Part shown: in pieces, positions 56,455-61,499 of the stretch
How the letters are laid out: each line of letters opens with the position of its first letter
How positions within the stretch are numbered: position 1 is the first letter of the stretch
Assembly (NCBI GenBank): GCA_964535955.1
Contig: CAZHVK010000002.1
Location: forward strand, 8,122-72,121
Direction of reading: 5' to 3'
DNA: 64,000 bases
From: an uncultured Methanosarcinales archaeon
GTDB lineage: Archaea; Nanobdellota; Nanobdellia; Woesearchaeales; CAXGTL01
Position numbers and translations under genes: made by a program
The notes under the pieces: generated by a model
Databases searched by the model: none
What the model saw: only the letters and a program-made list of their open reading frames with translations
Told to the model about the DNA's origin: nothing

Positions 56455-56697
56455 AAATAAGATTAGGTAGAAAGTAATTTAAAAATGTATTGTAAGAAAA
56501 AACAGAATCAAAAAGATATAAAAAAAGATGATCTCACATCATCATACTAGAATCTTTTAATTTAGATCTGAATTCTTTTTCATGTTTTATTGTTTTATAA
56601 TCTTTTTCTTCAAATAAGTCATTAAAAGACTTCACTGTTATTCTTTGTTTTATGTTTCTCACCCTTATATTTAGTTTTAAGTTAATTCATAAAAGTC

Positions 56698-56895
56698 TTA
56701 ATGTTTAGCATGAAATAGGATTTTTCCATTATCTTTAATTTCTACATATTTTCCTTTAGAAGGCTCTGATGAAGATTCAAATGTCTCTTCAGCACTATGA
56801 TAATCAAAATGTCTTTCTGCAATAGAATCTAAAGCTTCATATTCACTCTTAACTAATTCATTACCACAAAAATCAACAACATCTTTATCCTTCAT
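56698..56895 (-). pseudogene. Short ORF, possibly a truncated remnant of a larger protein
   Basis: SD GAGGTG before MKDKDVVDFCGNELVKSEYEAL...; ends after 65 aa with coding-like sequence downstream in other frames. Confidence 0.35.
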
Positions 56896-57111
56896 ATTAA
56901 TAACACCTCATATTTGTAAGGAAGCACCCCAAGAGCTTATAGAAATTATAAAGTCATTAGTGGGGGGATTTTATAATCATGATTACCCTTGGGCTCCCTA
57001 TAAGACTAAGATAACAATACTAGTATTTAAACCTTTCGCTTATTTCATTACTCTAAAGTGACTAATTATTCATAGAAACCTTTATAAATATAGATTTTTA
57101 TATATAAAATC

Positions 57112-57282
57112 ATGAAAGAAAAAAAAGAAAAAACAAGTAAAGTAAAATTCAGATGTAGTAAATGTAAATATGTATTTGAGCCTTGGAAAAAAGGAAGGAC
57201 AAAGCCATTCAACAGATGCCCATACTGTGGCACAGAAGGCAGTGTAACTGAAAAAAAGCATATTTTAGAAGAATTATACTAA
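57112..57282 (+). CDS. Small zinc-ribbon protein (not in ORF track)
   Basis: FRCSKCKYVF...RCPYCG. Confidence 0.75.
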   Translation: MKEKKEKTSKVKFRCSKCKYVFEPWKKGRTKPFNRCPYCGTEGSVTEKKHILEELY

Positions 57283-57304
57283 GACAGTACTAAACTCACA
57301 AGAA

Positions 57305-57844
57305 CTAGTTCTGATTCTTGACACTCAATATACGCTGTGAATTCTTAAGTTTAACACTAACCTTATCCTGTCTTTCTAGATCTTTTAAATATCTATAAAA
57401 TGAGGTTTTACCACATAATCCTTGCTGTTCTACAATAAGGGTATAGAGCTCATAAGCACTGAATTCTCTAGTTTCAAGCAGTACCAATATCTTATTCTTA
57501 ACAATAGCAGCCTTGTTCTGCTGAAACTGTTTGACTAATCTAAGCTCTACAGGGACCCGTTCATTTCCTTTGGAACTAGTTCCATTGGAACTCAAGGGGT
57601 GCCTGGTTAACAATCTATCCAACTTATCAATTAAAATACTCATCTTTCTACTGTTTTCTCTAGCAATTTCGCTCAAATTAGCTTGATTTTGTTTTAAAAA
57701 ATCAATTTCAGACTTAATTTTGCCAATAGAAGCACCTAATTTGACAATAACAACATTATTAGAAGAAATTTCCTTTTTTGACTTATCAAAAGCCTTTTTC
57801 ACCGCTTTTTCAAAGCTTAATTCAGTTCTCATCAGTTCCCCCAT
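57305..57844 (-). CDS. Coiled-coil + C-terminal winged-helix protein
   Basis: N-terminal heptads; C-terminal ILVLL...SAYEL...GKTSFYRYLKDLE wHTH pattern. Confidence 0.7.
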   Translation of the reverse strand: MGELMRTELSFEKAVKKAFDKSKKEISSNNVVIVKLGASIGKIKSEIDFLKQNQANLSEIARENSRKMSILIDKLDRLLTRHPLSSNGTSSKGNERVPVELRLVKQFQQNKAAIVKNKILVLLETREFSAYELYTLIVEQQGLCGKTSFYRYLKDLERQDKVSVKLKNSQRILSVKNQN

Positions 57845-57917
57845 ACATTATCAAAAGAAACTAGTTCTTAATAAAGATTTTGTGAGTATAAACAAAGAGT
57901 AAAAAAAGAATAAAAAA

Positions 57918-59528
57918 TTAAGGTATACGCATACAATGCAAACCTCTATGATAAAGCTCTGATATCAATTCAGTCAAGACATGTGCATCTTTTTTTGCAT
58001 TAAGATTACCTTCATCAATACTCTTCATAAATTCACCTAATGCAACTTCTTTACTCAACATATGTGCAATATATCTCTTTGATATTCTACCATCTTTTGC
58101 ATCATAAGATTTTTTAAAATCATCATGATCTATATTAACATGAATTAAACCCATACGATGATCAAGCTTACTTCTTAAATGTTGATCTTCAACATCAAAA
58201 CCAACAAAATTAGGAGTATAAAAACCTGAAATTATTTTTCTTGCTCTTCTTACATGAGTTTCCTTACCATCAGGATCAGGAGTCACAGTACTTCTTCCTT
58301 CTTCTTTAGGTTTTTTAGTCCTAGTACCACCAACACGGGTACTACCTTTAGCACCTTCACCATCCTTAACTTTTTCCTTAGGATCTCCTCTTCTTCCACG
58401 AACAAGCGCAGGATTTTTATCAAGCAAATCTCTAAAAACAGCATCAATTGATCTTAAAAAATCATCAGCAAACTTATATGTTTGATCTTTCTTTGGATCT
58501 ATTTTCAATCTATTTACTTCATCACCAAGATATTCTTCTTGATCAGTCAATATTTCAACAAGTTTTGAATATCTTCCTTGTTCATCATTTCTCTTTGGAG
58601 CAGTTCTTGAAGGAATAAGTTTAACAAAATTTTCATCTACTTCTCCTATTAATTTACCACTTCCCCAAGGATGAACACCTAATTCATCTAAATCAACTAT
58701 ATCATCTAAAACCAATACACCTTTATTATAATAACCAACCTTGTCTCCTGTTCCCTTTGGATTAACAAATAAATATAATTCAACTTCACCCTTAATAGTA
58801 TGTTTCCTAGTTTTTATTTCAACAGGAAACACATCATCAAGCACTTTTACAACTCCTGAATTCTTAGTATAATCAACAGGATCTATTGGAATTTTTTTTT
58901 GATTTCTTCCTAAATAACCAACCTTTACACTAATTATGCCTTTTCTTAGTAAAGGTGAAAAAGTTGTACTAATTATTTCCTTTATTGAACCAGGTGTAAA
59001 ATATTTTTCAATCTTATCAACAGGAATTCCTGTTAATTCAACAATAGTTCCATGACCAAAATTAGGCAATGCTCTAAGCATAGGAACATCTTTTGGCTTG
59101 ATTATGTCACGAAATGCACCAGCTTTCAAATCAGCATTCATTCTTAAATAATTAAAATCATCACTCTTAGAATCATATCTTCTTGAATAAACAATACATT
59201 GTGTTGCAAAACAAGATGGAAAACCCATCATTCCAAATGCTTTTTCACCAATAGCAGACTGGACTCCTCTTTTCAATGATTCACCAACTTCAAATGGAAT
59301 CATTTTAAGAGTTTTATAAGTTATTCCTGATCCATTATCAACAAAAATTATTTTATTATTTGTTTTACTAACCAAAATACCTAAGTTCAAAGCCTCATTT
59401 TCTAATCTATTATCAATAGCATTTGAAGCAAATTCTTTGAATCCATATTTAGGACTAGGATACATTTGTTGAATTTCTCCAATCATAAAAAGATCATTTC
59501 CAATCCTATAAGGTATTTTTTCTCCCAT
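57918..59528 (-). CDS. GHKL (MORC/MutL/Hsp90-like) ATPase
   Basis: Bergerat motifs KEFASNAID, VDNGSGI, GEKAFG, GHGTIV; start MGEKI with SD GGAGGAG. Confidence 0.85.
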   Translation of the reverse strand: MGEKIPYRIGNDLFMIGEIQQMYPSPKYGFKEFASNAIDNRLENEALNLGILVSKTNNKIIFVDNGSGITYKTLKMIPFEVGESLKRGVQSAIGEKAFGMMGFPSCFATQCIVYSRRYDSKSDDFNYLRMNADLKAGAFRDIIKPKDVPMLRALPNFGHGTIVELTGIPVDKIEKYFTPGSIKEIISTTFSPLLRKGIISVKVGYLGRNQKKIPIDPVDYTKNSGVVKVLDDVFPVEIKTRKHTIKGEVELYLFVNPKGTGDKVGYYNKGVLVLDDIVDLDELGVHPWGSGKLIGEVDENFVKLIPSRTAPKRNDEQGRYSKLVEILTDQEEYLGDEVNRLKIDPKKDQTYKFADDFLRSIDAVFRDLLDKNPALVRGRRGDPKEKVKDGEGAKGSTRVGGTRTKKPKEEGRSTVTPDPDGKETHVRRARKIISGFYTPNFVGFDVEDQHLRSKLDHRMGLIHVNIDHDDFKKSYDAKDGRISKRYIAHMLSKEVALGEFMKSIDEGNLNAKKDAHVLTELISELYHRGLHCMRIP

Positions 59529-59529
59529 T

Positions 59530-60147
59530 TTATTCTCCTCCTTTAGGTACATAAATAGAATCAAAAACAAATGCCCTTAAATCATCATCTTTGTAAATAG
59601 CATTTATCATTGCATTTAAATTACCAGCATCTCTTGGATTTATTGCTTTTCTTAATTCCATAATTTCATCAGGTGTAACATCCCTTCCATAATTAAACAC
59701 AAGTTCTCTTAATTTGTAAAAAGTTTCCTTGATTTCAGCAACCCTTTCATCAACAGGAGCTTTTTCTTGTTCATTTCCTTGTACTCTTTCTGCAAGCAGA
59801 GTTGTTTCAACTGCTATATATTTTAATCTTAAAATTAATTCATCATTACTAACACCAGGAACTTCTAATATTGCAACCTTTTTTTCAGGTGTTTTAGATT
59901 TAGCAGTAACTTTAGGAACAACACTTTCTTTAGATTGTATGTTACCTCTATATTCATCAGGTATTGCAAGAACTTCTTCTAATTTAGATAATGTATCTTC
60001 ATCAGGTCGATATTCATTACTTTCATATCCACCAATAGTACTTTTAGCTTTATCTACAAGTGAACCTAATTTGATCTGAGAAATACCTTTTTGTTTCCTA
60101 AAATATTTTATTTTTTCCCCTAATGTGTTAAATTCTAAATCTGACAT
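59530..60147 (-). CDS. XRE-family HTH protein with unknown C-terminal domain
   Basis: LGEKIKYFRKQKGISQIKLG...STIGGYESNEYRP; stop is 1 nt from the GHKL start. Confidence 0.85.
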   Translation of the reverse strand: MSDLEFNTLGEKIKYFRKQKGISQIKLGSLVDKAKSTIGGYESNEYRPDEDTLSKLEEVLAIPDEYRGNIQSKESVVPKVTAKSKTPEKKVAILEVPGVSNDELILRLKYIAVETTLLAERVQGNEQEKAPVDERVAEIKETFYKLRELVFNYGRDVTPDEIMELRKAINPRDAGNLNAMINAIYKDDDLRAFVFDSIYVPKGGE

Positions 60148-60243
60148 ATAATCCCCTCAATTATTATATAGTAAACAGAAATGGTATATAAAGGTTTCTA
60201 TTGTTTACTACTGAGAAATAGTTAAATCATTTGTTCTTTAGCA

Positions 60244-60903
60244 TTAATTGATTTTTTTACCCAAATAAACAAAGTGTTTTGTTGGCAAAGGCGCTCTTGA
60301 CCAATTTTGACTTTTTAATCCTGCTCTAGAAAAAAGACAATCAACCCCTTTATTTCGCATGATCTGAATACAATCATCTAAACCAAAACTTGTATGCATT
60401 CTATATGATTCTAGATCTCCTAATAATTCCCTTTCTCTTTGTTCAATTCTTATATATCCCCATCTTTGATAAAATTCATCATAAGACATGCTTTTCATAT
60501 CATAATCAACAACTCCAATAAACCCTCTTAATCTTAAAAAAGATAATGCTTCATCAATTAGTTCATTAGGGTTTTCATGCAAAACAGCTAATGCAAAAAC
60601 AAAATCAAAAACAAAACTAGGTTTAGTATGTGTAAATATAACATCAAAATATTCATCAAATCTTTTTGAAGATGTTTTCTCTATAATTGCACCAATAGCA
60701 TTAGAACGCTCTTTTATAGATTGTATTTTTTCTTGATTTTTATCATACGCAGTTACTTGTGTATTTCCTAAATATCTATTAACCATAACAGGAAAAAAAC
60801 TATCACCAGATCCAAAAACCAAAGCATTATTGATAGGATCATAGTTATCTAATTCCTTTAAAACAAGTCCTGGAATAAGTCCTTCAATAGCATCTTCTCT
60901 CAT
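60244..60903 (-). CDS. Class I SAM-dependent methyltransferase
   Basis: LVFGSGDS, TAYD, FALAVLHE, GFIGVVDY. Confidence 0.75.
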   Translation of the reverse strand: MREDAIEGLIPGLVLKELDNYDPINNALVFGSGDSFFPVMVNRYLGNTQVTAYDKNQEKIQSIKERSNAIGAIIEKTSSKRFDEYFDVIFTHTKPSFVFDFVFALAVLHENPNELIDEALSFLRLRGFIGVVDYDMKSMSYDEFYQRWGYIRIEQRERELLGDLESYRMHTSFGLDDCIQIMRNKGVDCLFSRAGLKSQNWSRAPLPTKHFVYLGKKIN

Positions 60904-60965
60904 AACATATTGGGAAAACCAGAACTATAAAAAGATATTTAAACTAAACAATATAAATAAAGTTT

Positions 60966-61499
60966 ATGAAAGTAATCATAGTAACAGGCTCACCAGGAAC
61001 TGGTAAAACAAAACTAGCTAAGAAACTAGCAAAACAAAAACACTATGAATACATTAATGTATCTAAGCTAGTCAAAAATGGAAAACTTTATGATTATTAT
61101 GACAGGAAAAGAAGAACATATGTTGTTGATACTAAAAAACTTAACAAATTTCTTATTGAAATAATAAAAATGTATAAATGTAATAAGCATCCAGCCCTTA
61201 CTAAGTCAGGGGTGGGTGGCCGGGTGGCTGGAAGGTGGGCTAATAAAAAAGATAAAGTCAAAGGCATAATCATAGACTCTCACATGTCACATTACCTACC
61301 AAAGAAGTATGTTAATCTGTGCATTGTGACAAAATGCAACCTAAAACAACTAAAAACAAGACTTAAAAGAAGAAAATACAACAAAGCAAAGATCAGAGAA
61401 AACTTAGATTGTGAGATATTTGATGTATGTTTAACAGAAGCAAAAGAAAAAGACCATAAAATAAAAATAATTGATACAAGTAAAACCCAAAAAAGCTGA
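60966..61499 (+). CDS. Adenylate kinase AK6/Fap7 family with an in-frame G-tract insertion
   Basis: VTGSPGTGKT, IIDSH, RLKRRKY...KIRENLDCEI. Confidence 0.9.
   Translation: MKVIIVTGSPGTGKTKLAKKLAKQKHYEYINVSKLVKNGKLYDYYDRKRRTYVVDTKKLNKFLIEIIKMYKCNKHPALTKSGVGGRVAGRWANKKDKVKGIIIDSHMSHYLPKKYVNLCIVTKCNLKQLKTRLKRRKYNKAKIRENLDCEIFDVCLTEAKEKDHKIKIIDTSKTQKS
61191..61239 (+). repeat. G-tract dispersed element, copy 8 (intragenic)
   Basis: CCAGCC...AGGGGTGGGTGGCCGGGTGGCTGGAAGGTGGG. Confidence 0.85.

Follow-up and report, generated by a model that had tools for sequence, protein, structure and literature searches.

A conserved pair of a helix-turn-helix protein and an Hsp90-like ATPase in an accessory cassette of a Woesearchaeota-type archaeon

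Prokaryotic MORC and paraMORC proteins, which combine a GHKL ATPase with an S5-fold domain, occur sporadically, in loci devoted to restriction-modification or conflict (Iyer, Abhiman and Aravind 2008, PMC2292703). Tiamat proteins are longer than 1000 amino acids (aa) and carry DUF3684 (TPR-like folds) as well as a C-terminal PD-(D/E)xK nuclease (NOV_C/DUF3883); proteins of this type have been proposed to close around a nucleic-acid substrate (10.64898/2026.09.30.754977). In CapK/CapS, CapK is a SpoIIAB-like serine kinase with STAS, and CapS is a STAS-winged helix-turn-helix protein (Chambers et al. 2026, PMC13373217). This work describes a gene pair in a 64,000-nucleotide stretch of contig CAZHVK010000002.1 (referred to here as the window, at its full length), which belongs to the 1.49-Mb genome of a Woesearchaeota-type DPANN archaeon. 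Judged by MgtE, its nearest named relatives are metagenome-assembled genomes of this type. The first gene encodes a helix-turn-helix (HTH) protein, referred to here as the adaptor, and the second encodes a GHL (GHKL) ATPase whose nearest structurally solved relatives by profile and fold are Hsp90 proteins. In kind, the pair is a GHL ATPase module in an accessory locus, as is already known from other systems. What appears to be new is its miniature architecture within the Hsp90 lineage, its obligate HTH partner, and its unclassified C-terminal domains; no published description of an HTH protein paired with an Hsp90-like ATPase was found in the literature searched.

Both genes lie on the minus strand. 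The adaptor gene (59530-60147) encodes 205 aa, and the ATPase gene (57918-59528, including the stop codon at 57918-57920) encodes 536 aa. An earlier note on this DNA, made from the sequence alone, had described the two as translationally coupled, and the junction bears this out: a single spacer base (59529) separates the TAA stop codon of the adaptor gene (59532-59530) from the ATG of the ATPase at 59528. Direct reading of the sequence also places a Shine-Dalgarno element, GGAGGAG (59535-59541, minus strand), within the final Gly-Gly-Glu codons of the adaptor gene, 6 nucleotides (nt) before that ATG. A TTG at 59570, which would start the longest open reading frame (ORF), was rejected as the start of the ATPase. 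The ATG at 59528 was taken as the true start because all relatives begin at the equivalent of MGEKI.

The ATPase family was collected with HMMER from 1.84 billion representative sequences at an E-value cutoff of 0.001, giving 176 clusters, 38 of which remained at an E value of ≤1e-30. Most clusters are ∼450 to 600 aa in length and match most of the query, and about two dozen are shorter fragments. For comparison of gene order, we used 16 independent loci whose ATPases share 26 to 47% identity with that of the window. Directly upstream of the ATPase, all 16 carry a gene of one and the same family (∼170 to 370 aa), detected with a hidden Markov model of the partner. The exact 1-nt spacer recurs in 7 loci, and several others have 4-nt overlaps. 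Since this order, partner and then ATPase, is repeated in independent loci with identities down to 26%, the pairing is not due to chance. In a phylum-wide survey sample of 401 genomes, the partner was present in only five, and exactly these five gave the strongest full-length matches to the ATPase; the two genes were always adjacent, with no orphans, and the pair is present in about 1 to 2% of phylum genomes. Partner and ATPase have also diverged together, as the correlation between their distance matrices (r = 0.55) was reached by none of 2,000 permutations. The proposal that the pair represents a conserved, undescribed module was therefore upheld, both by this recurrence and by PADLOC, NCBIfam, and Pfam, which gave no family assignment beyond a subthreshold match to HATPase_c_3.

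In the adaptor, a variable linker joins an XRE-type HTH at the N terminus to a conserved domain at the C terminus. Residues 13 to 63 match HTH_3 (PF01381) with an E value of 2e-11 and 44.2 bits, against a cutoff of 23 bits; partners in the other loci carry a related HTH that falls below Pfam thresholds. The C-terminal domain of the window adaptor is marked by the motif F143-Y144 ... D173-x-G175 ... N182-A183-x-Y185-K186-x-D188, for which the partner-family consensus is S-[RK]-D-x-G-Y...N-A-[IV]-Y-K-P-D.

The ATPase begins with an N-terminal Bergerat ATP-binding domain (aa 1 to 196; 58941-59528), delimited by profile match and alignment. This is followed by a middle (transducer) domain with a helical hairpin (aa 197 to 372; 58413-58940), assigned from the secondary structure of an AlphaFold2 (AF2) model and from Foldseek. 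A basic Gly/Ser/Pro-rich linker with a net charge of +9 (aa 373 to 434; 58227-58412), recognized by its composition and by the lowest values of the predicted local distance difference test (pLDDT), leads to a C-terminal domain of predicted beta-beta-beta-alpha-alpha-alpha topology (aa 435 to 536; 57921-58226), drawn from the AF2 model and the alignment. All of these segments lie on the minus strand. The AF2 model built from an alignment of 113 ATPase members, which also served for residue counts, has a mean pLDDT of 92.9, with the linker again at the lowest confidence; a model built from only 5 sequences was poor (pLDDT of 58.7).

The sequence features listed in the earlier note (Bergerat motifs, the variant GEKAFG, a charged linker, and a C-terminal IHVNIDHDDF) were all found in the translation. 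The Bergerat motifs comprise E32/N36/D39, D64xGxG68, S84xK86, G94EKAFG99, and G160T161. Among the 113 members, the ATP-site motifs E32/N36/D39, D64-G66-G68, G94-EKAF-G99, and G160-T161 are retained in 101 to 113 (E32 in 110, N36 in 112, G68 in 113, G99 in 112, and T161 in 101). Transducer position 308, within the motif L-x-P-S-R, is Arg in 104 members and Lys in 7. Because the ATP-site residues and position 308 are conserved in this manner, the ATPase is likely to be catalytically competent. The K/R/G-rich linker has a median length of 56 aa and a median charge of +4, and is net positive in 84% of the members. In the C-terminal domain, where IHVNIDHDDF occupies aa 462 to 471, the alignment identifies R452-S453, N465, H468, Y/F471, and Y486 as conserved; these residues may belong to an active site, or to a surface for dimerization or docking. 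No Pfam family covers this domain, and a profile search of the PDB with the middle and C-terminal domains retrieved no relative. The expectation that the pair lacks a recognizable nuclease was also borne out, as domain scans detected none in either gene.

To which GHL lineage the ATPase belongs was gauged with a profile of 63 family members. The best match in the PDB was an Hsp90 N-domain (3h80; E value of 2.5e-18, 69.7 bits, profile positions 18 to 185), and the top 60 matches were all Hsp90. The same profile scored 56.8 bits against the topoisomerase VI-B (Topo VI-B) of this genome and 30.5 bits against its MutL. The fold comparison gave the same ordering. In a Foldseek search of the PDB, ranks 1 to 45 were Hsp90 paralogues (GRP94, Hsc82, HtpG, Hsp90-alpha/beta, and TRAP1), led by 5uls (E value of 3.9e-17) with ∼370 to 400 aligned columns over the N-terminal and middle domains. 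The ATPase module of SMCHD1 (6mw7) followed at rank 46 (E value of 8.5e-14), and no MORC or MutL structure appeared in the top 50. As modeled, the first two domains of the ATPase are Hsp90-like in fold: the match spans the Hsp90 N-terminal and middle domains, with Arg or Lys at position 308 in 111 of the 113 members, while the middle domain has no match in the PDB at the sequence level. In general pattern, the L-x-P-S-R-E motif appears to resemble the Hsp90 catalytic loop NLSRE, and I-G-x-S-x-K the Hsp90 lid motif. In a library of viral proteins (BFVD), the best fold match was A0A481VXV4, an unnamed 494-aa protein aligned over its full length (E value of 1.4e-16), possibly a genuine member of the family that was binned with a giant-virus metagenome.

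These results did not sustain the description of the ATPase as MORC-like. MORC and paraMORC proteins carry the signature GhXhhpXXRhl in the S5-fold domain (PMC2292703), and this signature was not present in the family alignments inspected. The sole invariant Gly...Arg pair, G295...R308, is 13 residues apart with acidic or polar residues where the signature needs hydrophobic ones, and the segment N-K-G-V-x-V lacks an arginine at position 9. A MORC-like identity was thus ruled out by the missing motif together with the fold ranking. Topo VI-B and MutL were ruled out by domain content. The ATPase lacks the Topo VI-B transducer domain PF09239, which the Topo VI-B encoded on contig C1 of this genome does carry (E value of 6e-60), and it lacks DNA_mis_repair and MutL_C, both of which are carried by the MutL encoded on contig C7. 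In a Pfam scan, the window ATPase matched HATPase_c_3 alone, below threshold (19.9 bits). Across the 63 family members scanned, all carry only HATPase_c_3 or HATPase_c; 3 of them weakly match the sacsin Pfam model. The earlier note had held that clustering with Topo VI-B, MutL, or HtpG would count against its reading, and half of this came about: the ATPase does lie nearest Hsp90, but it is neither Topo VI-B nor MutL, nor is it an HtpG orthologue. On profile and model evidence, the ATPase is a separate GHL lineage nearest Hsp90.

What excludes a canonical Hsp90/HtpG orthologue is PF00183 (the HSP90 middle and C-terminal domains), which matched nothing in the genome at an E value of ≤0.01 and did match in control genomes. 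Archaea are generally said to lack Hsp90. The same evidence bears on whether the ATPase could be a genuine protein chaperone, i.e., a miniature archaeal Hsp90 with the HTH-like protein as its co-chaperone. In its favor, the nearest solved structures are Hsp90 chaperones, and this genome contains no canonical Hsp90. Against it, the ATPase itself is among the genes without a PF00183 match, the PDB contains no sequence relative of its middle and C-terminal domains, and its partner is predicted to be a DNA-binding HTH protein. Moreover, occurrence in ∼1% of genomes, with absence from genomes of the same genus, is unlike a general chaperone, and we regard this explanation as improbable.

Our preferred reading, held tentatively and with somewhat less than even confidence, is that the ATPase forms a dimeric Hsp90-like clamp, gated by ATP, which the HTH adaptor loads onto DNA. 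With Hsp90, MutL, MORC, and SMCHD1 as the models, the ATPase would be a constitutive dimer, probably held together by its C-terminal helical domain, with N-terminal gates that close on ATP binding. The N-terminal HTH of the adaptor would bind DNA while its conserved C-terminal domain docks onto the ATPase, so that the adaptor recruits the ATPase to DNA, which would then be held in a lumen lined by the basic linkers. ATP hydrolysis assisted by R308 would reopen the clamp. The outcome would be occupation, compaction, or silencing of the bound DNA rather than its cleavage. The link to DNA in this scheme comes from the XRE-type HTH of the adaptor, from the net-positive linker in most family members, and from the multi-HTH proteins added to the extended operons described below.

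Several observations weigh against the clamp. An Hsp90-like fold would suit a protein client just as well, and the preference of the family profile for Hsp90 over Topo VI-B amounts to only ∼13 bits at the sequence level. The polar C-terminal residues R452, S453, N465, H468, and Y486 could form a catalytic or ligand site, which a passive clamp would not call for. In the genomic context, nothing ties the pair to foreign DNA, as its neighbors are mostly housekeeping families. PADLOC returned no match for the ATPase at an E value of ≤1 and NCBIfam returned none, and a PHROG scan of 128 neighboring proteins found no viral hallmark (capsid, terminase, or integrase). Finally, between loci L001 and L004 the ATPase is 64% identical and ribosomal protein S7 is 65% identical; divergence at the pace of S7 is not the behavior of a protein in an arms race.

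The pair has its own promoter. A B recognition element and TATA box (BRE/TATA), ATAGAAACCTTTATATACC, lies at 60183-60201 on the minus strand, 36 to 54 nt upstream of the adaptor start codon, and the near-identical ATAGAAAGATTTATAAAT is found upstream of the partner genes in L001, L004, L008, L063, L082, and L172. In most loci, a canonical archaeal BRE/TATA (ATAGAAA[GC]NTTTATAWAT) is situated 30 to 50 nt upstream of the partner gene, and it is kept even where the pair sits inside the S12-S7-EF2 ribosomal operon. This makes the HTH-ATPase pair a predicted autonomous transcription unit. The conserved ATAGAAAGATTTATAAAT motif was rejected as a specific operator, being the generic BRE/TATA consensus of these genomes. 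A looser consensus, GAAANNTTTAWAWA, occurs 5 times in the window, compared to 0.9 expected, also upstream of other genes. Because the same consensus precedes unrelated window genes, the element was assigned as a promoter rather than an operator.

The promoter is also where a different function, an ATP-driven transcription switch, can be assessed. The HTH protein would repress or activate host genes, and the Hsp90-like ATPase, as its dedicated remodeler, would control its DNA binding in the manner of a chaperone with its client. The strict, translationally coupled pairing, which suggests a fixed stoichiometry, would suit such a switch, as would the Hsp90-like fold, the housekeeping-like rates, and the stable S12-S7-EF2 position in two related lineages. 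A 9-nt perfect inverted repeat, TAGTAAACA/TGTTTACTA, brackets the TATA box of the pair's promoter and might have served as its operator, but 140 of 2,000 shuffles reach such a repeat and none was seen in other loci, leaving that role unsupported. The conserved upstream motif is only a generic promoter. The basic linker of the ATPase suggests that the enzyme contacts nucleic acid directly, and so rare a pair is unlikely to be a core regulatory circuit. We consider the transcription switch doubtful.

In the window, the pair forms part of a larger insertion. Genomes G172 (contig C3, locus L090) and G072 (contig C34, locus L091), both of the same genus, align to the window at about 76 to 84% nucleotide identity on both flanks, over 56929-57914 and from 60909 (G172) or 60938 (G072) onward. 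The intervening segment, 57915-60908 (to 60937 for G072), is missing from both. The resulting cassette (57915-60908, minus strand; 2,994 bp) holds a methyltransferase-like gene, the adaptor gene, and the ATPase gene, and its edges fall 3 nt past the ATPase stop codon and 6 nt before the methyltransferase start. In G172 and G072, the flanks are 260 to 384 bp apart and enclose a different ORF in each, an unrelated ∼86-aa or ∼99-aa ORF with no Pfam match. Three genomes thus have three cargoes in a slot between a conserved winged-helix gene and an adenylate kinase (AK6) gene, with the cargo in each case placed immediately after one and the same conserved promoter region. G+C content at third codon positions (GC3) is low in the cassette, whose three genes rank second, third, and fourth lowest among the 37 ORFs of the window, which suggests a shared history. 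Overall G+C content shows no island at the cassette, as only GC3 differs, and no flanking repeats of at least 8 nt were found. As aligned, the three genes form one accessory cassette in a variable cargo slot.

Three further features surround the slot. The downstream coiled-coil/winged-helix gene (57305-57844) was rejected as a part of the module, as it has 82% nucleotide identity in the same-genus genomes that lack the cassette. The strong BRE/TATA consensus of the pair also stands (57073-57088) before a neighboring gene for a 56-aa zinc-ribbon protein (57112-57282), which is likewise conserved in both relatives. Smaller differences between the genomes were also seen: ∼65 nt within the AK6 gene (61187-61251) are missing from both relatives, whose alignments are contiguous there, and 56503-56928, including a 65-aa ORF (56698-56895), has no alignment to either. 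At this second variable spot, ∼1 kb from the cassette, G172 has ∼150 nt and G072 has ∼420 nt.

The remaining cassette gene (60244-60903, minus strand; 219 aa) resembles class I S-adenosylmethionine (SAM) methyltransferases, with a weak Pfam match (Methyltransf_11, E value of 0.008). It lies where the earlier note had put it, 96 bp upstream of the pair on the same strand. Its standing as a component of the system did not survive the comparison: although co-inserted here, it is not a conserved partner. The only homologue, P0159 (42% identity, with PF08241/PF08242), adjoins DoxX, HD, and DisA genes and occurs without the HTH-ATPase pair. Small SAM methyltransferase genes do adjoin the pair elsewhere, directly upstream in L063, directly downstream in L001, and in L007 (which also has a SET-domain gene), but they are not homologous to one another and show no similarity to that of the window.

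Across the loci, neighbors are mainly housekeeping or uncharacterized genes, and nuclease, helicase, and restriction-modification genes, whether fused or adjacent, are missing from 15 of 16. In L001 (5120-7271) and L004 (7421-9581), from two related metagenomic lineages, the pair and its promoter occupy a stable place between the rpS7 and EF-2 genes of the S12-S7-EF2 operon; in L004, an AAA+ (RuvB_N/AAA) gene lies just upstream. In L078 (10568-13574), a MoxR-type AAA protein (AAA_5 and AAA_lid_2) and a VWA protein are encoded downstream in the same-strand operon; receiver-like domains are encoded upstream, on a contig of 185 kb. Six loci (L064, L065, L066, L071, L078, and L079) extend the operon with a ∼460- to 640-aa multi-HTH protein, whose C-terminal half is conserved (YLGLEG...SLIAE.D...GGEIFKGLN...FNL.NLDY.G...FVTLND). 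Its motif order looks like that of a class I methyltransferase, but this remained unconfirmed, with an hhalign probability below 1% and no PDB match. A ∼430- to 440-aa "fourth component" in L065 and L066 was rejected as an ATPase paralogue, the link having been a spurious phmmer edge. A distant member, L067 (7430-9184 on G102:C14; E value of 2e-55), has its C-terminal INIDHSNF domain cut off by an in-frame TAA and lacks the HTH partner. On its two sides are genes for an N4/N6 and a Dam-like DNA methyltransferase, along with PIN and toxin-antitoxin genes, and it may be either a pseudogene or a restriction-modification-associated branch of the family.

The defense role suggested in the earlier note drew no direct support. 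Known defense genes were not enriched around the loci examined, viral hallmarks were lacking, most neighbors were housekeeping genes, and the ATPase diverged as S7 does. A known defense system was rejected, given that neither PADLOC nor NCBIfam matched the ATPase. Matches to PADLOC "mad2" among the neighbors were rejected as a defense signal as well; because mad2 is the MADS methylase, they are generic methyltransferase matches. A prophage or mobile-element context was likewise rejected, with no capsid, terminase, or integrase among the 128 neighbors, no relatives found in viral contigs, and no flanking repeats.

This context is what must be set against a methylation-linked defense against mobile genetic elements, an explanation near to that of the earlier note, in which the methyltransferase would mark self, the adaptor would read unmarked foreign DNA, and the ATPase would clamp or silence it, as an effector-less analogue of restriction-modification. 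The co-inserted methyltransferase-like gene, with the same codon bias as the pair, fits such a system, and so do the unrelated small SAM methyltransferases beside the pair in three other loci, the position of L067 between two DNA methyltransferases and PIN toxin-antitoxin genes, the MoxR AAA-VWA pair of the L078 operon, and the sporadic occurrence of the family. Hsp90-like GHL ATPases such as Tiamat are proven defense proteins (10.64898/2026.09.30.754977). However, the window methyltransferase resembles a small-molecule, protein, or RNA class I enzyme, and direct reading of its sequence showed no DPPY-type DNA-methylase motif. Its only homologue stands apart from the pair, the flanking methyltransferases are of separate families, and a methyltransferase is missing from most loci; the third component of ∼500 aa adds only its unconfirmed methyltransferase-like look. 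Taken with the lack of a defense-island context, of a PADLOC match, and of rapid divergence, these points make methylation-linked defense unlikely, though not negligible.

The variable slot also raises the possibility that the pair serves a mobile element selfishly, as an addiction or maintenance module in which, as in HipB-HipA, an HTH antitoxin gene precedes the gene for a large toxin. The XRE-HTH gene comes first, a larger gene comes second after a 1-nt spacer, and PIN and nucleotidyltransferase toxin-antitoxin genes occur near some loci. The likeness to the HipBA-like family consists of gene order and coupling, and no toxin domain was recognized with Pfam, PADLOC, or NCBIfam. Neither the cassette nor the 128 neighbors show integrase, transposase, repeats, or viral genes, viral-contig relatives were not found, and in L001 and L004 the pair keeps a stable, syntenic location. 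Furthermore, the partner, at 200 aa and with its C-terminal domain conserved, does not resemble short, labile antitoxins, and an addiction module is very improbable.

Returning to the clamp, its biological role can be assigned with similar caution. An accessory function in genome conflict, e.g., the control of foreign or mobile DNA, comes close to an even chance. The pointers to it are the rare and patchy family, the variable slot, the context of L067, the MoxR/VWA genes of L078, the nonorthologous methyltransferases, and the multi-HTH operons. Accessory control of chromatin or transcription of host genes is quite possible, and some other role, while unlikely, deserves to be kept in mind. A more far-reaching version would make the pair the core of an unrecognized, effector-less DNA-silencing machine of ultra-small archaea, a prokaryotic counterpart in function to SMCHD1/MORC silencing that uses an ATPase of the Hsp90 lineage. 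In it, the adaptor would pick foreign, unmodified, or site-specific DNA and load an entrapping Hsp90-like ring, with interchangeable methyltransferase or multi-HTH add-ons setting specificity; we put this forward as speculation that is rather unlikely to hold in full.

GHL ATPases of the Hsp90/sacsin/Tiamat lineage are only now being recognized as nucleic-acid-directed conflict proteins. At ∼530 aa and with ∼176 clusters, the present family is the smallest architecture of this lineage seen here. It carries no effector domain, and as such offers a clean system in which to ask how an Hsp90-type ATP gate acts on DNA. A correct clamp model would link prokaryotic Hsp90-like proteins, in their mechanism, to SMCHD1/MORC silencing in eukaryotes and would add an accessory chromatin or defense function to DPANN archaea, whose gene content is largely uncharacterized. 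Were the pair a chaperone-client switch, by contrast, a single transcription factor would have an Hsp90-like remodeler devoted to it, a rare arrangement.

Compared with the systems introduced at the outset, the pair shares features with each and coincides with none. Like CapK/CapS (PMC13373217), it combines a GHKL-fold protein with a DNA-binding transcription factor beside accessory genes, but it has no STAS match, and its modeled transducer domain is typical of GHL ATPases rather than kinases. With the Hsp90 family (HtpG, Hsc82, GRP94, and TRAP1), it shares the N-domain profile and the fold of the N-terminal and middle domains, and its conserved transducer arginine, R308, may correspond to that of Hsp90. 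Hsp90 proteins are ∼620 to 700 aa in length with an acidic linker, whereas the ATPase described here has 536 aa and a basic linker, is obligately paired with an HTH protein, is rare and accessory, and lacks PF00183. Tiamat resembles it in its N-terminal Hsp90-like ATPase with a transducer arginine and in its rarity among prokaryotes. Unlike Tiamat, the window ATPase carries neither DUF3684 nor PD-(D/E)xK, is about half as long, and has no PADLOC match, and its family depends on an HTH partner, whereas Tiamat is largely stand-alone (10.64898/2026.09.30.754977). MORC and paraMORC proteins are found in a restriction-modification context, which is approached here only by the distant member L067 with its flanking DNA methyltransferases. 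The pair nevertheless shares with SMCHD1, MORC, and paraMORC a GHL ATPase with a transducer domain, and SMCHD1 and MORC act as ATP-gated dimeric clamps on DNA or chromatin.

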